The notes beneath the pieces are model-generated. The model was not told the origin of the DNA, did no database searches, and saw only the letters and a program-made list of their open reading frames with translations. The position numbers were made by a program, and so were the translations under genes. DNA of 56,776 nucleotides from Escherichia phage Seurat, in the sequence record NC_027378.1. One strand, given 5' to 3'. Positions 18,467 through 46,593 of the stretch are shown piece after piece; position 1 is the first letter of the stretch, and each line of letters starts with the position of its first letter.

Positions 18467-18494
18467 TTAACCCCTCAAACGAGGGGTTAATTTT
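18467..18494. terminator. bidirectional intrinsic terminator between J and the convergent lipoprotein gene
   Basis: TTAACCCCTC-aaac-GAGGGGTTAA perfect 10-bp stem with T-rich flanks on both strands. Confidence 0.6.
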
Positions 18495-18727
18495 CAATAA
18501 TCAATCACACAGTTTGAAGGTGAGCCAATTCGTCGGTATTCGTGATCAATTTCATGGCACCATTGCCCAGTCATTGGAAGCTTTTCGGTATTATAAATTA
18601 AAGAACCGTTACCATCGCGATCCAAAGGTTTTGGAATAACGCCGGAATTTGGTTTACCAGTATTTAAACCATTACCACATGCAGTGAGGGACAAACATAA
18701 TGCCAGCATAATTAGAGCGTGTTTCAT
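18494..18727 (-). CDS. small outer-membrane lipoprotein, candidate receptor-blocking superinfection exclusion protein (Cor/Llp-like)
   Basis: 77 aa; signal peptide MKHALIMLALCLSLTAC with lipobox LTAC; opposite strand between J and the side fibre; RBS AAAGGAG. Confidence 0.6.
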   Translation of the reverse strand: MKHALIMLALCLSLTACGNGLNTGKPNSGVIPKPLDRDGNGSLIYNTEKLPMTGQWCHEIDHEYRRIGSPSNCVIDY

Positions 18728-18763
18728 CGGGACTCCTTTGTGTTGTTGTCAAGGTTCAATTTT

Positions 18764-18791
18764 AATATACTTGTTGTGTTGAGTAAGTCAA
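18764..18791 (-). promoter_or_regulatory. sigma70-like promoter for the lipoprotein gene
   Basis: TTGACT-N16-TATATT on the minus strand about 40 nt upstream of the lipoprotein ATG. Confidence 0.45.
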
Positions 18792-18809
18792 ATAAATGTG
18801 GGAGATATT

Positions 18810-20618
18810 ATGGCAACTCGTTTACGTGGTACTTTAGTTGATGGTTTGAACAAGCCTATTATCAACGCTACAGTTGCGCTTTTAGCTAAAGGAAACAGTC
18901 TTACCGTATTATCCGGCAGCGAAGCTATCTTTAAAACAAGTGCAACCGGAACTTATGATATTACAGTCCAGACAGGTTATTACAAGGTTATTATCGGTCC
19001 ACAGGGCGTAGAGCCATATAAAGCTGGTGAAATTGCTATTTACGCGGATAGTAAAGAAGGTACGCTGAATAACTATTTAACTACATGGGCACCGGAAGAA
19101 TTAACTCCGGAAGTTATTGCTCAGGTAAAAGATTTGGTTGCACAAGCAGAGACGGCTAAGAATGCTTCAGCTTCGTCTGCTACTAAATCCGAGCAAGAAC
19201 GCGTTAAAGCAGAAGCTGCTGCTAGAAAGGCAGAAGACACTGCTAATGGTATGAAGGCGTCTATTGGTCTTAGCAATGTTCCAAGACATGTAGCAGATAT
19301 TAGTGGAAACCCTTCTGAGTTCTTAGGGTTTATACGCATATTAAGGACAACTACTGTCGGTTATCCTTCAATTGCTTCTGGTGAAACAGTATTAGCTGGT
19401 TTTGTGTCACCGATGGATGGAACTCCAGGATATACTGGTGTATTTGTTGGAGATGTGACTGGGACTTTATATACTTACCGTTGGACTTCAGTTACTGGCG
19501 CTATATGGTGGAAACATGTAAAATCAGAAACAATAGACAGATATACACAATTATCCGATTCCACTACTATTTATAATGCGTCAAAGAGCGCTACCCTTGT
19601 CATAAAAGATACTAAAACTTGGGGAGCTTGGGACAATCAAAGCTCCAAATACATACCTCTGGCAATAGCACAGGGTGGCACTGGAGGGGTTACTGACGCG
19701 GACGCTCGTACAAACTTAAAGCTTGGCGCTAACGATACCCCGCAATTCAGAAACCTTAATCTTGTTACCGTAGCGGACACGGCGCAAGCCCCTTCCGGTA
19801 TTGTAAGCGGTTATTTAAATAATAGCTCTGGAGTTCAAAGATGCCGCTACCGCATATATTCTGAAATACGCGGTGACAATAAAGCGTGGTTAACCTTACA
19901 CCTTCAATCAGACACAGCAACAAATAAATATGCTGGTCTAAGCGTTGATGGTAATTTTCAAATCAATGGAAGTTTTATCGGTAACGCTTTAAGTCTTAGT
20001 GATGTCCCTACTTCTAAAGTAAATCTTCAAATTAATAGATTTGTTCAGAACACTGGTGAAACTGATGTGGTTAACCATGCAGGGACAGCTCAAATTTTTA
20101 TCACTGATAATAAAAATTGGGGAGCTTACGATAAAGAATCAAAGCGCCATATTCCTTTGCCCATTTCACAAGGAGGTACTGGAGCGGTTACTATTGCTGA
20201 TGCTAAAACCAATCTTCAAATTCCATCTGTAGGTGGGGGTGATTGGTTAACTTATAACGCCCCTCCTGGCGTGGAAGCTGGAAAGTATTATCCCGTTATT
20301 ATTGATATGGCGTATAGTTCTTTATATGCTTCCGGCGCTTTTATAGATATAAAAACAAAATCCGCCTCTGGCGATGATCCAATGAACTGCTGCACTTTTA
20401 ACGGTTTTATCCGATGTGGTGGTTGGAGCGATCGTAAAGACTTCGCAGGGGATTTTATTAGTAAGTTTCTTGGTATGCAACCAGAGCAGCCTGTAGAAGC
20501 ACGCGAGCATATTAGCCCGTGGCCACCCATGATTGATCAGGAAGTGCTGCAACCAAAGACCGCTCAAACGGTCCCTCAGAAACCGGAGCAGAAGGTGAAA
20601 CCAAATGACGAAGAATGA
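18810..20618 (+). CDS. side tail fibre / receptor-binding protein
   Basis: Track start is GTG at 18798, reset to the ATG at 18810 (RBS GGGAGA); two internal repeats (KTWGAWDNQSSKYIPLAIAQGGTGGVT... and NKNWGAYDKESKRHIPLPISQGGTGAVT...). Confidence 0.7.
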   Translation: MATRLRGTLVDGLNKPIINATVALLAKGNSLTVLSGSEAIFKTSATGTYDITVQTGYYKVIIGPQGVEPYKAGEIAIYADSKEGTLNNYLTTWAPEELTPEVIAQVKDLVAQAETAKNASASSATKSEQERVKAEAAARKAEDTANGMKASIGLSNVPRHVADISGNPSEFLGFIRILRTTTVGYPSIASGETVLAGFVSPMDGTPGYTGVFVGDVTGTLYTYRWTSVTGAIWWKHVKSETIDRYTQLSDSTTIYNASKSATLVIKDTKTWGAWDNQSSKYIPLAIAQGGTGGVTDADARTNLKLGANDTPQFRNLNLVTVADTAQAPSGIVSGYLNNSSGVQRCRYRIYSEIRGDNKAWLTLHLQSDTATNKYAGLSVDGNFQINGSFIGNALSLSDVPTSKVNLQINRFVQNTGETDVVNHAGTAQIFITDNKNWGAYDKESKRHIPLPISQGGTGAVTIADAKTNLQIPSVGGGDWLTYNAPPGVEAGKYYPVIIDMAYSSLYASGAFIDIKTKSASGDDPMNCCTFNGFIRCGGWSDRKDFAGDFISKFLGMQPEQPVEAREHISPWPPMIDQEVLQPKTAQTVPQKPEQKVKPNDEE

Positions 20619-20889
20619 AGGTATTGATAAAGTCGTTGAAGGGCTTTCTATTCGTGCTCATGTTATAGCAGACGAAGGTCATGATCAACTCACAATTATG
20701 AAATCTGCATTTAGTGATTTTAAGTCTCTTGGAAACTTAAGCGGGTTAATGACTGTGGTGTCGACCGGAAAATTAACCCAGCAGCAAATCAGTCTGGCTC
20801 AGCGTATTGCTGTTAAAGTTATTGCGGTACTTGGGATGATTGAAGCTGAAAAGCCCAGTTCCAAGCAGGATAACGAAAGCGACCTTTAA
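20605..20889 (+). CDS. hypothetical protein (possible fibre assembly factor)
   Basis: 94 aa; overlaps the fibre gene end. Confidence 0.35.
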   Translation: MTKNEGIDKVVEGLSIRAHVIADEGHDQLTIMKSAFSDFKSLGNLSGLMTVVSTGKLTQQQISLAQRIAVKVIAVLGMIEAEKPSSKQDNESDL

Positions 20890-20900
20890 GGAGGTCTACT

Positions 20901-21104
20901 ATGTGTGGTAATACTAACCGTTGCTGTCTAGGCAGTCCTGCAACACAAGCAGGTATACTTCAGGGGCAATTAGCTCAAGCGGCGTGTAATTGCAAAACTT
21001 TTCAACCAGTAGCTCCAACTCCTGTGTTTGTGAATGCTTTTGCACCGCCTGTTTTCAATACTTTTGGCGTATACCCATACGGTGCTTTCTTTCGTATATT
21101 CTAA
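20901..21104 (+). CDS. small Cys-rich protein of unknown function
   Basis: 67 aa; strong RBS AAGGAGG; MCGNTNRCCLGSP...CNCK then hydrophobic C-terminus; followed by a terminator. Confidence 0.45.
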   Translation: MCGNTNRCCLGSPATQAGILQGQLAQAACNCKTFQPVAPTPVFVNAFAPPVFNTFGVYPYGAFFRIF

Positions 21105-21111
21105 GAAGAGA

Positions 21112-21136
21112 AAAGGGGCAAACGCCCCTTTCTTTA
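21112..21136. terminator. bidirectional intrinsic terminator between convergent blocks
   Basis: AAAGGGGC-aaac-GCCCCTTT hairpin with T-rich flanks on both strands. Confidence 0.65.
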
Positions 21137-21415
21137 ACGCTTATGAAAAGCTGACAGGATTGCAAGTGTTACAGCACCCAATCCGACGACGGTAGCATAA
21201 GTGAGTTGGTGTTGAACTTTAACAAAGCCATAATAGGTGCTAGGGATGTCTACAATCCCAAACGCCATAGCAAAGCTGGTCCCAAGCAGTGCTACAGCAA
21301 GGGCGCGTAATAACGCCCTGCTCATTGCTGTAAAGCCCTTCTCATTACTATCTCCGGTCATTATAACAACAATGATTAGAAATAGCGAAACGACAACTAA
21401 TAGATATTCCATCAT
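21134..21415 (-). CDS. small membrane protein
   Basis: 93 aa with about three hydrophobic segments. Confidence 0.45.
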   Translation of the reverse strand: MMEYLLVVVSLFLIIVVIMTGDSNEKGFTAMSRALLRALAVALLGTSFAMAFGIVDIPSTYYGFVKVQHQLTYATVVGLGAVTLAILSAFHKR

Positions 21416-21618
21416 TTGCGTCTCCTGTACATGTATTGATCATACGCAGTCGCAATAATAGTGACTGGCCAGCAAACAAGTATACATAGAAGACTCACAA
21501 TCTTCTCCCAACGTTTCTTATGAGCTAATGCATAATCATAATTATTCCAACAAAAGAAATAAGTCATTGCCGCAATGATTGCACCAATTACAAAATACAT
21601 AACCACATATTCATTCAT
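21412..21618 (-). CDS. small membrane protein (2 TM)
   Basis: 68 aa, two hydrophobic helices, basic C-terminus RRRK. Confidence 0.45.
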   Translation of the reverse strand: MNEYVVMYFVIGAIIAAMTYFFCWNNYDYALAHKKRWEKIVSLLCILVCWPVTIIATAYDQYMYRRRK

Positions 21619-40058: not shown

Positions 40059-40469
40059 TTAGGCTTTATTCGGCACAATTTCCAGAGACGCGGAACCAAC
40101 TTTCGATTCAACGCACTGGTTAAAGACTGCGGCTTGCTCCGCTGTAAGTTTACGCCAAGCCGCAACTTTCAACACAGGTTTATTTTCCACAAGCTGATCA
40201 ACGTTAACACCAACTTTAATCAGATCGCCCAGGATTCCGTTAAGGCTTGGAAGATCAATCTTGCGATCAATCTTGTGTGTCATTTTCATAACCCCGCCAG
40301 TAATTTCAACTTTATTAGTCCCTTCTGATGGAGCAGGGAAATAGGACTTAATAATCTTTTCGCGTAGTGCTCGCTCGCGAGCTTGAAGCTTTTGTAATTC
40401 TGCTTTGGTTTTATACCACTCAATGACATCTGCTTCGGTTGCTTGTACTGCTTTATCTGCGTCGAACAT
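40059..40469 (-). CDS. hypothetical protein
   Basis: Start reset to MFDADKAV... with RBS AGAGGA; about 136 aa. Confidence 0.45.
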   Translation of the reverse strand: MFDADKAVQATEADVIEWYKTKAELQKLQARERALREKIIKSYFPAPSEGTNKVEITGGVMKMTHKIDRKIDLPSLNGILGDLIKVGVNVDQLVENKPVLKVAAWRKLTAEQAAVFNQCVESKVGSASLEIVPNKA

Positions 40470-40493
40470 TTTTCTATCCTCTGTTGTGTTTCG

Positions 40494-40530
40494 ATGTATG
40501 TATAATAGCACATCCATGTGACAGGGCAAG
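40494..40530 (-). promoter_or_regulatory. sigma70-like promoter
   Basis: TTGCCC-N16-TATTAT on the minus strand about 30 nt upstream of the 40469 start. Confidence 0.35.
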
Positions 40531-40710
40531 ACTCAATCTGTATCAATTAATCTTTTTAAACGGATTAGTAATCTAGCAACCTTCCTCCATTCAGCATCCT
40601 CCATTAATGGTGAAGGCTTATATGCTTCAGGTATCGGACAAGGTATATATGGCTCCATGTCAGATATTACTTGCTTTGATAACTTTTTCTTCCGTTTACC
40701 CATAAATAGC

Positions 40711-41298
40711 CTATTTCAAATAGCGGGAAGTCATAATTGGCTGCAAAGACACTTCTTCCTCAGATGTAACCACATTAGCAGACGATCCAGTGGACCCGAA
40801 GCCGTTAGCACCGCGCTCAGTGGTCTTAAGCTCGTCCACTTCTACCAGTTGCACGCTGGGCAGCTTAATAAGCATAGCTTGCGCAATGCGATCACCATGA
40901 TTGACAGTAAAACTACCATCGTTATCAATAGTAATCTTAACCTTAACTTCTCCAGTGTAGTCGCTATCAATGACGCCCACGCAGTTTGCTAGACGCACGT
41001 CGTTTTTGAATCCGTGTCCGCTACGGGAATAGACCATAAGCGCGTAACCTTCAGGAATATCAAACGCTAACCCTGTGCGGAATATGTGCTCGTAAGAGAA
41101 AATAATTTGTTCACATCCATCTTCACTCTTAAGGTCCGCGTGCAGGTCAAAGCAAGCTGCCCCAGCACTGGCAAACGATGGCAGGATTGCGGTGTCTGTT
41201 AAGCGTTTTACCCCGAGAAGAGTTGGCGCAAAGGATGCAGCAGTTACGCTAGAATTAGTTATAGAAATAGTGTGCATATTATTTAATACGTCCGTCAT
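40711..41298 (-). CDS. dut: dUTP diphosphatase
   Basis: Motifs AGAACFDLHA, YSRSGHG, GVIDSDYTGE, GDRIAQ, RGANGFGSTG. Confidence 0.85.
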   Translation of the reverse strand: MTDVLNNMHTISITNSSVTAASFAPTLLGVKRLTDTAILPSFASAGAACFDLHADLKSEDGCEQIIFSYEHIFRTGLAFDIPEGYALMVYSRSGHGFKNDVRLANCVGVIDSDYTGEVKVKITIDNDGSFTVNHGDRIAQAMLIKLPSVQLVEVDELKTTERGANGFGSTGSSANVVTSEEEVSLQPIMTSRYLK

Positions 41299-41307
41299 AA
41301 TTTCACC

Positions 41308-41805
41308 TTATTGGATTGAACCGCGATCAATTAGCCATTGTTTCGCGTGCGCTTTAAAAATAATGCGGTAGTCATCAAGACTAATTTCCGCGCGGATGGA
41401 ATCTTTAACTTCATACCACTGCCATTCACCATTACTGAAGACAACCGGATTAAGTGGTAGAACAACCTTCCATCCTTTACGTTCTATTTTATACATCAGA
41501 ACTGGATATCTGCCAAGCTCTTTAGCAGATTGAACAGTCTGCTTCCACCATGTGTTTACTTGTGGTGTAGCATGGTTTTTTACTTCAACTGCATGGTGAC
41601 ATGTATTGCTAATGTCGCAACCACCGACCGCACTTTGATTCTGGTTACGCTGAGCAATAGGTTTTTCCGGTAACTGCATCCCCAGCTCTGCGTAGATTTC
41701 GGCATAAATTGCATTAAAGAAATCACATACTTCCCGCTCACCGCGTTGACCTTTAGCGCGAATATTTACTGCCATGTTTGTCTCCATAACTTTAATGTAA
41801 AACAC
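41308..41805 (-). CDS. PD-(D/E)xK endonuclease, Hjc-like Holliday junction resolvase (putative)
   Basis: KGQRGEREV...GGCDISN...HAVEVKN pattern. Confidence 0.5.
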   Translation of the reverse strand: MFYIKVMETNMAVNIRAKGQRGEREVCDFFNAIYAEIYAELGMQLPEKPIAQRNQNQSAVGGCDISNTCHHAVEVKNHATPQVNTWWKQTVQSAKELGRYPVLMYKIERKGWKVVLPLNPVVFSNGEWQWYEVKDSIRAEISLDDYRIIFKAHAKQWLIDRGSIQ

Positions 41806-41847
41806 TTCATAAAGAATTTTATATTGAAGTTATGTTGATCGCAAGGA

Positions 41848-41880
41848 ACAAAAAAGCCCAGGCATAAGGATTCCTGGGCT
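41848..41880 (-). terminator. intrinsic terminator
   Basis: AGCCCAGG-aatccttatg-CCTGGGCT followed by TTTTTT on the minus strand. Confidence 0.6.
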
Positions 41881-42192
41881 CTCTTGATTGTCGGATAGCT
41901 TACTTTGACTGCCGTCTTCGTCTACCCTGGCCTACTTGTACAGCCTCGCCAAAGGCTGGTGACGGTTTGGTACATCTGGCGCCGTCTCGTTAAACATCGT
42001 TTACATCGTTCAGTAAGTTGCGGGTTTACCCTGTCCGCTCCAGGAAGCCCAGCGAAAGTAGTTGCTGTAAGGAGGTACAGCTACCGCTTTCAAGGGCTTG
42101 AGTTAAGCATCGTTCACTAAGTTAATGTTGTTAAATTGTTAAACCTCGTTAACTGTGGTTATCTTAAAGGATGCAGTCTTGAATGGCAAGCT

Positions 42193-43199: not shown

Positions 43200-45539
43200 T
43201 TCCTCTTCACCTAAGTTTGCCATAATTCCTTCAACATCTTGCGTAATGCGCCAAGCTGCCCCAGTAAATCCCAGTTTAATAGTCTCCTCCCGTGTTACCG
43301 GAACAAGTGCACCCATAGCAACCATTTCCTTGATTGTAGACTCGATTGCAGCGGACAATCCGTGATGATAGTTTTTAAACGCGGACTTACTTGCAAGACG
43401 CGTAGTAATATCACCCCGCGTGATAATACCTTCTTTGCGCAAATCTACACGTTTAACTTTGACCCAGTCTTTAGTTAGATAATTCACACAGACCTGACAC
43501 ATAGTACGGATACGAGCTTCATCGTTAGTCCCGATACCGCCGCTATGCCATTCCTTCATAATAATGTCCTGTCCATGTCGCACAAAGTCCAAAGCCCATT
43601 GCACATGATATGTCTGTACCACCGGATTGATCCAGTTTTCCCCAACTGCTAACAGGGCGGATAGACGTAACACCTTCAGGTGAGCACGGTTCCAGGGCTG
43701 ACGGATTGCTTCGTCTTTGGTTGCGTTAATATTACGGTCACATTCGTCGTTAAACTGATCACATAATGCTTCCGCTTCTGGACTAAACTGCACTTCAATA
43801 CTTTGATGCTTTGCCATTGCGACTAAGGTGTGGTTAACAAGATGGCACACCATATCACGCAAATGCTGATCCATTGTAGTCTGCTGGTTCTTGTTTAAAG
43901 GTGGTCGATCACCTTCATAGCGGACAACATGGAAACGGGATAAGAATCCATCCTCCATCATTTCACGGGTTAACGCTTCAAAAAACGTGTCCGGTGTTGT
44001 TTCGCCCATGATGCTATAGGCCACACCTTGTTGAGCTTCCGTATTATTAGCCTTATCAGAATAAGACATACCACCAACAATAGACATCTGACCGGACTTT
44101 TGATAAACATCGGTAAGATCATTCTTGAAGCTTTGCATCGGTGAACCTGCTGGCGCCGTAGCCATTGCTTTAATAATCTTACCAAACTCACCGTTCAAGT
44201 TGATAAAAGATTGTTTGTCTGCAAAAGATTTACGCAGTGCGGAGCCGGAAGCGCATCGGTCAAATGATACAAAGCTATGAATCTGCGGAAACGGTTCCTG
44301 AAGCTGGCTAACTATATTAGATAGACCACTGTTCAACGTTTCTTTACCAACACCAGAACGAGCAATAAGGACAAAATATCCATTAAGACCGGATTGAGGA
44401 ATCTGCCAAACCTTCCCGCATACGCCAGCCATAAATCCTAGTGCTGTCACAATAGAAATTTCTTTCACTGGTCGGACGGATGCCTTGTAGATGTACTTCG
44501 CAAGCTCCCCAGCAAGTCCCGGCGGCCAGTCAATGGCGGTTGCATCAATAGACGTACTTTCTGCAACTACGGTCTGCCCCTGTGTTGTTTCAACAGTTAC
44601 GGGCATTTCCGCTACCTGTTGCATTGCACTGTGTGCCGCTTGCATACGGGCAGCATAATCCCGCGCCAGCGCCGCTACGTTTTCCTGGGCAATGCGCTCA
44701 CGCTCCATGCGACCGCGACACATACGCAAGCAACGGTCAATATGAACATTGTTCTTATTAGCCTTCTCACGTTTGCCCAGTGCGCTATAACGGAACAGAC
44801 GACGACATTGCTCATTACTTTCCGTGTAAAATGCATACATAGAAATAAGGGCAAGGTCTGCTTCAGACTGGGAAGGGAATCCCATTTCAACCCATTCACC
44901 ATTGAATAGGCGTGCATACTTATCTCCGTTGTCCGCTTCAAGTGCACGCTGGTGAATAGTTGCATCGTCTTCTACCGGATCTTTTTCTACCAGTTCAATT
45001 TCATATGTCTTGCGCTGAAGATCAATTTCATTCACAAGCATAGTAAGATAATGATCGCGTTCGGCAACTGGTTTGTTATAGACAGGATTACCCGTGCAGA
45101 TAATAAAACGCTCCTGACTATAAACTTCGACACCATCACGTCGGCGACCTTTACCGATGTTTCCTCTTAACCACAGGTGAACGCCCAAGCCTGAGCGACT
45201 TACTTCGGTGTAAGTGTCGAACGCAGTCATGATCTGTTCGAAGCGACGCAATTGCTCCGGCGTAGTGTGCTTCTTGGGGTCCGGTTCATTGGTTGCGTTC
45301 TTCACATCCAGGTCGATGCAGGTGAACGGGTCTTGTGCAGTAAGCACGAAGCCAATATAAGGTTTATTGAAATGAGCGGCGCAACCTTTGGCAGCTTCAA
45401 ACGTCATAAGCATATCCGGATCGGTAACGTCCGCCGCCATCAAACGTCCAATATCGTTATCCCATACGAGCGGCTTTTTGTCCGTATCGGCGACAGCCCA
45501 TTGTGGGAAAGCTTTAATTTCAGCGGGAAACAGTTCCAT
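43197..45539 (-). CDS. DNA primase-polymerase (AEP-type) fused to a C-terminal helicase/NTPase
   Basis: N-terminal FTCIDLDV and SGLGVHLW primase motifs; PriCT-like SEADLALISMYAFYTE; Walker A LIARSGVGKET. Confidence 0.75.
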   Translation of the reverse strand: MELFPAEIKAFPQWAVADTDKKPLVWDNDIGRLMAADVTDPDMLMTFEAAKGCAAHFNKPYIGFVLTAQDPFTCIDLDVKNATNEPDPKKHTTPEQLRRFEQIMTAFDTYTEVSRSGLGVHLWLRGNIGKGRRRDGVEVYSQERFIICTGNPVYNKPVAERDHYLTMLVNEIDLQRKTYEIELVEKDPVEDDATIHQRALEADNGDKYARLFNGEWVEMGFPSQSEADLALISMYAFYTESNEQCRRLFRYSALGKREKANKNNVHIDRCLRMCRGRMERERIAQENVAALARDYAARMQAAHSAMQQVAEMPVTVETTQGQTVVAESTSIDATAIDWPPGLAGELAKYIYKASVRPVKEISIVTALGFMAGVCGKVWQIPQSGLNGYFVLIARSGVGKETLNSGLSNIVSQLQEPFPQIHSFVSFDRCASGSALRKSFADKQSFINLNGEFGKIIKAMATAPAGSPMQSFKNDLTDVYQKSGQMSIVGGMSYSDKANNTEAQQGVAYSIMGETTPDTFFEALTREMMEDGFLSRFHVVRYEGDRPPLNKNQQTTMDQHLRDMVCHLVNHTLVAMAKHQSIEVQFSPEAEALCDQFNDECDRNINATKDEAIRQPWNRAHLKVLRLSALLAVGENWINPVVQTYHVQWALDFVRHGQDIIMKEWHSGGIGTNDEARIRTMCQVCVNYLTKDWVKVKRVDLRKEGIITRGDITTRLASKSAFKNYHHGLSAAIESTIKEMVAMGALVPVTREETIKLGFTGAAWRITQDVEGIMANLGEEE

Positions 45540-45545
45540 ATTAAA

Positions 45546-45749
45546 TTAAGACCTCCGACGCTTATCGCCTTGCATTGCTATAAGTGCTGGCTCAGCAATT
45601 TCGCGCACGTATACAAATACGTTAGCGATACGAACAGCTCCAGGAAGTATATCTCGATTGCGGCACAACTTATAACGACTAACCCCGAAACGGGCTTCAA
45701 TCTCTGATGTGGTTATATATTTAGCATCAAACTCGTCTTGTGCAGTCAT
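45546..45749 (-). CDS. small helix-turn-helix DNA-binding protein (excisionase/AlpA-like)
   Basis: YITTSEIEARFGVSRYKLCRNRD HTH pattern; RBS AGGAGGAG. Confidence 0.55.
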   Translation of the reverse strand: MTAQDEFDAKYITTSEIEARFGVSRYKLCRNRDILPGAVRIANVFVYVREIAEPALIAMQGDKRRRS

Positions 45750-45810
45750 AGCTCCTCCTTTGTCCGCACACTATACACAGATAAGAGGAGCCATTGCAAC
45801 CAAATTTGCA

Positions 45811-46593
45811 TTATTGGGCAGCAAAGTTTGCGTACTCCATAACGCATTCATATACCTCTTCAGGAGTGCGACCTTCCCGTAGATTTATCATCCATTCGTC
45901 CAATTGTCCAAGGCGTTGCTGAGCCTTCGTGATGTCATGAAATGCTTGCCATGGAAAAAAGTTTCCCCCAGCTAGTGCAACCTCTATGCCCGTAGCGGCG
46001 TTGCCATATGCCTTGAGCTTGCAAACAGGCCAACGTCCACGATTATCCCAAATTGCTGGTTCCACATTTTTATCCGGCCGCGAATACCATCTATTTTTAA
46101 GAGATGTGATTTCTTTTTCCGTTAACTGCTCACCCTTCGCACGCTCATTCTTGGCAAGCCAAACTTTAAACGCAGACTCATTATTTTTATCCTTTGTTTG
46201 GCAAACCTTAAAAGCATTCTCATATGGTGCTTCCGGTCCAAACCGTTTGTAGTAGTCAAACTTGCCGCGGAACTTTGCAACTTCTTTAGTTGTAAGTTCA
46301 CGGTTTTCTTTTTCCTTTATTTGTTCGCGCACCCATACCATAAACTTATCACGCTCAGGGTTTTCTTTTTTTGCAGCAGCTTTTCCGTGTTTAACTTTAG
46401 ACTTCACATCTTGTGCGCTATCAAAATAATCCTCAACCATCTTAAGAGCCTGCTCTTTAGTTACCTTTCCGCGGATACGGGAACACGCTTGCACGACCCA
46501 GGCTGCGAAGCACAAATCCTTAACCACATTGGGGTGAGTGCTGGTCGGCTGTTCCTCCACCACCGCGTTATTGTTAGTCAGCTCTGTATTCAT
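45811..46593 (-). CDS. hypothetical protein adjacent to the iteron region
   Basis: Track start is TTG at 46653; reset to the ATG at 46593 (RBS GGAGG); Lys-rich middle region. Confidence 0.5.
   Translation of the reverse strand: MNTELTNNNAVVEEQPTSTHPNVVKDLCFAAWVVQACSRIRGKVTKEQALKMVEDYFDSAQDVKSKVKHGKAAAKKENPERDKFMVWVREQIKEKENRELTTKEVAKFRGKFDYYKRFGPEAPYENAFKVCQTKDKNNESAFKVWLAKNERAKGEQLTEKEITSLKNRWYSRPDKNVEPAIWDNRGRWPVCKLKAYGNAATGIEVALAGGNFFPWQAFHDITKAQQRLGQLDEWMINLREGRTPEEVYECVMEYANFAAQ

Follow-up and report, generated by a model that had tools for sequence, protein, structure and literature searches.

gp25, a small conserved accessory gene at the end of the rightward late operon of Escherichia phage Seurat

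Escherichia phage Seurat is a Seuratvirus, a CAjan-like coliphage of the Queuovirinae, and its sequence record NC_027378.1, a stretch of 56,776 nucleotides (nt), is here called the window. At 20901..21104 on the plus strand the window carries a small gene of 67 codons plus stop, which belongs with CAjan gp25, 9NA gene 15 and PHROG 25697 and is referred to as gp25. The open reading frame (ORF) starts with ATG at 20901, ends with TAA at 21102-21104 and encodes MCGNTNRCCLGSPATQAGILQGQLAQAACNCKTFQPVAPTPVFVNAFAPPVFNTFGVYPYGAFFRIF, which contains the tryptic peptide CCLGSPATQAGILQGQLAQAACNCK. A sequence-only reading of the window had described a 67-residue ORF with a strong ribosome-binding site, and we find a perfect Shine-Dalgarno box, AAGGAGG, at 20888..20894 (plus strand), 6 nt 5' of the ATG. 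A GGAGG or GGGGG box also occupies the equivalent position in homologous gp25 loci. The Shine-Dalgarno box lies directly 3' of the TAA that ends the upstream 94-residue gp24 ORF, and the intergenic gap of 11 nt suggests, as far as spacing can tell, that the two genes are translationally coupled. Directly 3' of gp25, where the same reading had seen a terminator, lies a bidirectional intrinsic terminator hairpin (21107..21135, both strands) that is common to gp25 and a convergent gene and consists of the stem GAGAAAAGGGGC, the loop AAAC and the stem GCCCCTTTCTT. The hairpin folds with -16.2 kcal/mol (z = -3.8 against shuffles). A simple terminator scan scored it as a terminator on the minus strand only, while the homologous hairpin is annotated as a terminator in both directions in the GenBank record of SA126VB.

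Because dozens of spurious ORFs of 30-90 amino acids lie nearby in the window, the length of the gp25 ORF alone is not evidence for a gene, and it is conservation that settles the question. Conservation in relatives, which the sequence-only reading had proposed to look for, is evident at two levels. About 21 phage records share a 100% identical protein with only 93-99% identity of the DNA in the region, and diverged homologues of 54-69 amino acids retain the same frame and a similar length. The Nei-Gojobori ratio of nonsynonymous to synonymous substitution rates (dN/dS) is 0.08-0.25 for the whole gene. In unsaturated pairs it is 0.02-0.07 for codons 1-28 and 0.07-0.18 for codons 29 to the end, the latter within tail alleles, and these low values place both halves under purifying selection. 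ORFs overlapping gp25 in other frames showed no conservation when the ORFs of the window were compared with the homologous loci. The interval 20901-21104 is a genuine protein-coding gene under purifying selection.

By sequence, gp25 falls into PHROG 25697, an ORFan family that is catalogued but uncharacterised. The profile match covers the full length (residues 1-67 against profile positions 1-67 of 67, E = 3.2e-49), the protein is 100% identical to CAjan gp25 (YP_009196819), and the window and the homologous loci share the order gp24-family gene, gp25, bidirectional terminator and convergent gene for a protein with three transmembrane (TM) segments. CAjan gp25, 9NA gene 15 and Solent_024 are members of this same family, which is annotated as 'hypothetical protein' and has no described function. 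Further homologues occur in Hafnia phage yong3 (67 amino acids), in SA126VB, in Salmonella phage STP-SP5 (69 amino acids) and on several metagenomic contigs (63-67 amino acids). The 9NA-like phages carry a 54-residue form that was recovered by profile search, and the Seuratvirus and 9NA-like lineages share only ~42-45% identity. An intact gp25 ORF is present without annotation in the GenBank records of yong3 (L002:6001-6204), ECP2304 (L004:3001-3204), Skure, PLYYY01, PJ16 and AVIO78A.

Searches with phmmer against 1.84 billion representatives and searches of 5.8 billion proteins returned phage ORFans, one spurious repeat protein and nothing else. The repeat protein (P0008, 430 amino acids) matched gp25 residues 6-42 in five stretches with E = 2e-7; its sequence resembles a low-complexity repeat unrelated to phages and was taken as a false positive. 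A scan of IMG/VR added no gp25 outside the two lineages, Seuratvirus and 9NA-like phages; its weakest match (L026, E = 1e-4) is a short GC-rich stretch with an in-frame stop and looks like chance. No match was found in Pfam, NCBIfam, PADLOC or the PDB sequences, in agreement with the earlier judgement that the protein is not placeable from sequence. The Seuratvirus comparative paper, both BASEL papers, the 9NA announcement and the phiHS1 preprint make no mention of the gene.

The alignment divides gp25 into two modules, constant residues 1-28 and a fast-diverging tail of residues 29-67. The conserved N-terminal module (20901..20984, plus strand), delimited by invariant columns, dN/dS and the helix of the AlphaFold2 model, consists of a Cys cluster and, after it, the beginning of a Gln-faced, Gln/Ala/Leu amphipathic helix. 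It follows the motif M-C-[GC]-x(0-4)-C-C-L-G-x-P-[AT]-T-Q-x-G-[ILV]-L-Q-x-x-[LIV]-A, and among its conserved parts is the 13-residue core CCLGxP[AT]TQxG[ILV]LQ. Invariant columns of the alignment are M1, C2, C8, C9, L10, G11, P13, T15, Q16, G18, L20, Q21 and A25. Five Cys in the first 31 residues had been counted before, and they are found at positions 2, 8, 9, 29 and 31. Conserved are C2, C8 and C9 only; C29 and C31 are lineage-specific, neither being retained in yong3, P0006, P0007 and the 9NA type. Extra Cys come and go beside the cluster (MCC...CC, NCCC), and in the contigs L016 and L017 the beginning of the protein is reduced to MCCLGSP. A Zn-ribbon or other four-Cys metal site was rejected as an identity since C2, C8 and C9 alone are invariant. 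The sequence-only reading was right about a Cys-containing protein, and a fixed four- or five-Cys site for its 'metal-binding peptide' is weakened.

The variable C-terminal module (20985..21101, plus strand) was delimited by alignment, composition, predicted disorder and a mosaic patch. Its Pro/Phe-rich, hydrophobic character was described correctly before: residues 33-67 contain 6 Pro and 8 Phe (7 Pro in the whole protein) and end with FFRIF. Across homologues the tail sequence diverges beyond recognition while its character is kept. Asp and Glu are completely missing from 11 of the 12 gp25 homologues tabulated, compared with 17 of 11,857 windows of 67 residues taken from the phage's own long ORFs. 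The homologues have a net charge of +1 to +4, ~10% Pro and ~12% Phe, their tails are rich in Phe, Pro, Ala and Val, and their last residue is aromatic or Leu. On the Wimley-White interfacial scale the gp25 tail ranks in the top 0.6-3.5% of the phage's protein segments, so peripheral membrane binding is conceivable. Judged by its hydropathy the tail is not a TM helix: the maximal Kyte-Doolittle mean over 19 residues is 0.98 (0.9-1.6 in homologues), the 6 Pro speak against it, no hydrophobic helix of at least ~19 residues exists, and AlphaFold2 places no helix in the tail, for which reasons a TM or holin-like protein was rejected. The proposal of a membrane-active peptide thus loses the TM helix and retains the high interfacial hydrophobicity. 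Based on a nine-sequence alignment, the AlphaFold2 model of gp25 has a mean predicted local distance difference test score (pLDDT) of 52, with a low-confidence helix at residues 13-32 as its sole element and a tail predicted to be disordered.

A comparison with SA126VB bears on how the tail evolves. The DNA of this phage is 100% identical to the window from 20460 to ~20940, falls to 68-73% over 21000-21120 and then returns to 92-100%. The low-identity patch of ~120-150 bp (L003:4100-4220) coincides exactly with the tail-coding half of gp25. Since the mosaic patch is confined to this half, the tail is exchanged as a module between phages.

In phages of the CAjan type, gp25 follows a lateral tail fibre gene, a terminator and promoter, and the genes gp21, gp22, gp23 and gp24, and is itself followed by the terminator and the convergent gene mem93. 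gp21 (235 amino acids) has a Gly-zipper N-terminus, a Gln-rich helical region, a CCC triplet and the C-terminal sequence PTPPTPPTGCC. gp22 (122 amino acids) combines a His-rich N-terminus with a MazG-like C-terminus and is labelled 'putative pyrophosphatase' in BASEL; its best family hint, PRA-PH/MazG-like, is sub-threshold (E = 0.016, 16.0 bits against a cut-off of 21.3). gp23 of the CAjan type has 176 amino acids. The gp24-family gene (20605..20889, plus strand), known from its ORF, homologues and an AlphaFold2 model, encodes 94 amino acids and is the last of this widespread four-gene cassette. Its product is predicted as a four-helix bundle with pLDDT ~90 for residues 1-82, for which no significant PDB fold match and no PqqD-like match was found. 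The idea that gp24 is an acyl carrier protein acylating the Cys cluster was dropped, as the PDB sequence match had E = 1.2, no conserved Ser stands at the expected position and the fold search returned no acyl carrier protein. A programmed frameshift fusing gp24 to gp25 was likewise rejected: the gp25 frame opens no earlier than 20874, a slippery heptamer is missing, and the spacing is not constant among lineages. mem93 (21134..21415, minus strand) encodes a 93-residue membrane protein with three predicted TM segments, as judged from the ORF, its homologues and a TMHMM note of the Solent annotators. The four-gene cassette (CAjan, L001:4426-6390; L023:4117-5986) thus codes for a Gly-zipper/Gln-rich protein, a His-rich MazG-like protein, a protein of ~170 amino acids and a four-helix bundle of ~85-94 amino acids.

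The same block, including gp25 and mem93, is present in 9NA-like phages of Nonanavirus/Sashavirus, namely 9NA, Sasha, Sergei, Solent, KarinMuster Bas82, PJ16 and AVIO78A. In these genomes the block follows a terminator and promoter of its own and separates the large terminase from the portal gene, and the co-transferred mem93 is ~52% identical. We compared 9NA-like loci of ~7-12 kb around the block, including terminase and portal, with the window by tblastx. Similarity was limited to 20427-21416, plus a dUTPase match and two short weak matches elsewhere. As the block recurs in 9NA-like phages with similarity confined to it, we conclude that the gp25-containing block is horizontally mobile. The only strong similarity outside the cassette is the dUTPase gene (window ~40800-41076, minus strand), with ~40% amino acid identity to L023:11496-11699 and L024:11015-11290 of 9NA-like phages. 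The sequence-only reading had gp25 closing the virion module; by position it does end the rightward late operon in the window, while the company it travels in is a mobile accessory cassette with a terminase-portal site in 9NA-like phages.

The gp24 family occurs in 158 phage records and gp25 in two phage groups only. The gp21-gp24 cassette stands 3' of the fibre gene in Seuratvirus, Nonagvirus (JenP1), Drexlerviridae (DanielBernoulli, pSf-1) and Eiauvirus (eiAU-183), and gp25 is absent from the Drexlerviridae, Nonagvirus and Eiauvirus cassette loci examined. The distance from gp24 to the next annotated gene is only 12-70 nt in Drexlerviridae and Nonagvirus. In Eiauvirus a tblastn match to mem93 begins ~20 nt after gp24, hence mem93 is present there without gp25 (Edwardsiella phage eiAU). 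The gp24 stop codon of Drexlerviridae and Eiauvirus lies inside the stem-loop of a bidirectional terminator, where it occupies the loop, AAAGGGGCG-TAA-GCCCCTTT (L031:3745-3775, L033:2914-2945, L034:4245-4275), and there is no room for gp25. The Seuratvirus terminator 3' of gp25 has a similar AAAGGGGC...GCCCCTTT stem. This arrangement is consistent with an insertion of gp25 between gp24 and its terminator, although it does not demonstrate it. Overall, gp25 is an optional addition at the 3' end of an accessory block that is mobile and prone to deletion and comprises gp21-gp24, the terminator and mem93, and the gp21-gp24 cassette may be a more interesting target than gp25 itself.

How easily the block is lost is documented by several genomes. 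In KS_A3 and KS_S4 the last 22 codons of gp25 remain, and the promoter region behind the fibre gene is joined to gp25 at the microhomology ATGCTTT (KS_A3, L007:2960-3070). In phiG7, gp21 codon ~90 is joined out of frame to gp25 codon ~9 (L006:2737-3180). This junction and a 'QLAQxA..CK..Q' likeness had raised the idea that gp25 and gp21 are paralogues, which was discarded given a BLASTP E value of 1.1 and the origin of the phiG7 junction in a microhomology-mediated deletion. A metagenomic 60-kb genome (P0004) has a 1-nt deletion in a G-run that cuts gp25 to 36 amino acids, 9NA has lost the stretch from the C-terminal part of gp21 through gp22 to the N-terminal part of gp23 (L024:5184-5749), and the contigs L016 and L017 lack the end of gp25, the terminator and mem93. 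PDP46 is also among the isolates with a deletion in the fibre-to-gp25 region. By these sequences the region is a deletion hot spot in which multiple independent microhomology-mediated deletions have occurred among sequenced isolates. Since isolates with natural deletions and a frameshift exist, gp25 is not essential for plaque formation.

Phage Seurat itself carries such a deletion. An ORF of 606 amino acids at 18798..20618 (plus strand) is a truncated lateral tail fibre fused to the C-terminus of gp23, the product of a ~3.1-kb deletion relative to slur01. It joins the first ~545 residues of a slur01-type lateral fibre in frame with the last ~60 of gp23. Window positions 18600-20441, which cover the first half of the fibre gene, correspond to slur01 40321-42162 with 99.9% DNA identity, positions 20427-21500 match slur01 45291-46365, and the junction is a 15-nt microhomology at 20427-20441. 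The C-terminal half of the fibre, gp21, gp22 and most of gp23 are lost, and gp25 stands behind a broken fibre gene. To judge from this junction, phage Seurat is probably without functional side fibres.

Upstream of the fibre fusion, directly after the J-like tail tip gene and antisense to it, the window encodes a 77-residue lipoprotein with a lipobox (MKHALIMLALCLSLTACGNG...; 18494-18727, minus strand). The syntenic gene is annotated 'lipoprotein' in CAjan and slur01, and it occupies a place where superinfection-exclusion lipoproteins of the Llp/Cor type are encoded.

What gp25 does can be addressed from its composition and context, and the reading that we tentatively put forward, as a possibility well short of an even chance, is a late-made, abundant, cytoplasmic, non-virion binding peptide whose tail docks to a membrane interface or a hydrophobic groove. 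The strong ribosome-binding site and the missing signal peptide suggest that gp25 would be made in quantity late in infection and stay in the cytoplasm, where it would act by binding and not as a part of the virion. The constant N-terminal module could serve self-association or thiol- or metal-based anchoring. The disordered aromatic/Pro tail would dock on the cytoplasmic face of the inner membrane or in the hydrophobic groove of a partner, perhaps mem93, the membrane protein co-transferred with it, or a protein of the host envelope, and the outcome would be the modulation of an envelope-related, non-essential process. As allelic exchange hits the tail alone, the tail is suggested to carry the specificity.

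Several observations weigh against this binding-peptide reading, whose functional part draws on composition and context only. An AlphaFold2 run on a fused gp24-linker-gp25 chain, with paired and unpaired alignment rows, left gp25 at pLDDT 40-50 and predicted no complex, a weak negative because pairing was shallow and both proteins were modelled as one chain. In Eiauvirus mem93 is found in the absence of gp25, and it does not co-vary with the gp25 tail allele, as evidenced by SA126VB, whose mem93 is 96.8% identical while the tail differs. The net charge of gp25 is only ~+3 and the amphipathic moment of its helix modest, for which reason membrane binding is not compelling. Moreover, the upstream cassette follows the lateral fibre gene in four phage groups, so that a virion or fibre link for the whole block may exist. 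A bolder form, which we regard as improbable, takes gp25 for an effector with a handle and a specificity tail: the constant Cys cluster and helix would hold a swappable acid-free aromatic/Pro peptide directed at a variable target, and the gene would move as a pair with a small membrane protein between unrelated virulent siphophages. The peptide might recognise a protein of the host envelope or, once lysis has released it, adjacent cells. If true, gp25 would represent a novel kind of phage peptide effector that lacks a leader and has allelic specificity.

Four other explanations were weighed, and what probability they and the readings above leave over falls to something else. The fibre context invites the view that gp25 is a virion- or lateral-tail-fibre-associated factor that helps to assemble or decorates the side fibres. 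In favour of it, gp25 ends the late rightward operon immediately 3' of the fibre locus and has a strong ribosome-binding site, and in Seuratvirus, Nonagvirus, Drexlerviridae and Eiauvirus gp21-gp24 come after the lateral fibre gene. The untested names 'lateral tail fiber chaperone' and 'sugar-binding protein' have been given to cassette members by some annotators, and the loss of the region in laboratory isolates fits the dispensability of side fibres on K-12. The protein is nevertheless 100% identical in CAjan, WildeMaa and the SLUR phages (e.g. SLUR75), whose lateral fibres are unrelated beyond the N-terminal attachment region and whose fibre-accessory genes also differ. No co-variation or co-occurrence with a cognate fibre was found among the loci, and apart from its own family gp25 has no PHROG, Pfam or NCBIfam match to tail fibre assembly families (Tfa/gp38/gp57). 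Several lateral fibres carry their own Peptidase_S74 intramolecular chaperone domain. Nonagvirus, Drexlerviridae and Eiauvirus have fibres and the cassette without gp25, and the block of 9NA-like phages is flanked by terminase and portal. gp25 is not tied to a particular tail fibre, the 'fibre-associated factor' of the sequence-only reading is weakened, and we consider a fibre role unlikely.

The invariant Cys2 and CC pair, together with the extra Cys that recur nearby, could instead mark a metal or redox thiol peptide. Its Cys cluster would bind Zn, Cu(I) or Fe-S, probably as an oligomer, or form disulfide cross-links after lysis, maybe together with gp21 and gp22, whose Cys triplets, Cys pairs at the termini and His-rich tracts are conserved in all lineages. 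With three conserved Cys only, two in the L016/L017 variant, no metal-binding family match in Pfam or NCBIfam, no site supported by the AlphaFold2 model, and a gp25 that persists where gp21 and gp22 are lost (the window phage, 9NA), this appears quite unlikely. A young, marginally functional ORF that arose between gp24 and the terminator, is kept mainly by linkage and is heading to loss would explain the narrow spread over two phage groups against 158 phage records for gp24, the gp24 stop within the terminator stem in Drexlerviridae and Eiauvirus, the repeated deletions and frameshift allele, and the low-complexity, disordered tail. It accords poorly with strong purifying selection on both halves at dS 0.6-1.9, preservation across two lineages at ~42-45% identity, a perfect ribosome-binding site and an invariant 13-residue core motif, and we hold it to be very unlikely. 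Hardly probable at all is a precursor resembling ribosomally synthesized and post-translationally modified peptides (RiPPs) or bacteriocins, with a leader and a hypervariable core that would be processed or set free at lysis to attack other cells, and mem93 as immunity protein. A conserved leader and a variable core exchanged alone by recombination are present as a pattern, the peptide is cationic, acid-free and hydrophobic, and a small membrane protein is co-transferred next to it; yet no modifying enzyme, recognition element, protease or exporter is recognizable among the neighbours (Pfam, NCBIfam, PADLOC; gp24 fold search), the Cys lie in the 'leader' and not in the 'core', mem93 occurs without gp25 in Eiauvirus, and there is no cleavage motif.

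Taken together, gp25 is a real but ordinary small accessory phage protein; more notable, as by-products of the analysis, are how mobile and fragile its block is and that the fibre is truncated. If its function were found, this would name a small protein that many coliphages and Salmonella phages from collections (BASEL Bas21-24, Bas82, CAjan, 9NA) make from a strong ribosome-binding site, and would help to explain the gp21-gp24 block behind the side-fibre genes of at least five siphophage groups. In practice, gp25 is not a structural requirement, its region deletes readily during laboratory propagation, and several annotations miss the ORF. The results touch no long-standing open question.

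Several known systems resemble gp25 in part. Tail fibre assembly proteins and chaperones (lambda Tfa, T4 gp38/gp57A) are likewise encoded by small genes downstream of a fibre gene, but gp25 has no homology to them, does not co-vary with fibre type and is absent from fibre-bearing relatives. The HypC/HupF hydrogenase chaperones have an N-terminal M-C-[LIV]-[GA]-[LIV]-P motif with an essential Cys1. gp25 has C-L-G-[S/I/N]-P after a Cys, with MCCLGSP in L016/L017 and CCLGIP in 9NA, whereas in most members the motif is at residues 9-13 and not at the N-terminus. We rejected this identity, as there is no Pfam HupF_HypC match at E <= 1 and no predicted oligonucleotide/oligosaccharide-binding fold, the model being a single helix. 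To some degree gp25 also resembles calcitonin/amylin-like peptides with their N-terminal Cys loop, ATQ-helix and aromatic C-terminus; no Pfam Calc_CGRP_IAPP match was obtained at E <= 1, the loop size varies among gp25 homologues, and the amylin likeness was taken as chance.

Two further comparisons concern lysis. The o-spanin of the lambda Rz1 type is a small Pro-rich, Cys-containing outer-membrane lipoprotein of the lysis cassette, and gp25 recalls it, without statistical support, in its small size, Pro content, Cys near the N-terminus and late expression. It differs in that gp25 starts with MCGNTNRCC and has no signal peptide, h-region or lipobox (L-[AS]-[GA]-C), and a stop at 20871-20873 in its frame leaves no upstream in-frame start. 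Nor is the gene beside or embedded in an i-spanin gene. Annotation puts the endolysin, holin, i-spanin and o-spanin of Seuratvirus at the opposite end of the genome, and with a full lysis cassette elsewhere and neither signal peptide nor lipobox in gp25, a spanin or lysis role was ruled out. Disruptin, gp28 of coliphage phiKT, is a small cationic peptide with which the phage disrupts the outer membrane during lysis. Here, too, the likeness has no statistical support: both would be small, late, leaderless, positively charged and acid-free peptides. gp25, however, is weakly cationic (+1 to +4), Pro/Phe-rich, predicted to be disordered and not strongly amphipathic-helical, and while disruptin replaces spanins, the phages that carry gp25 keep theirs.

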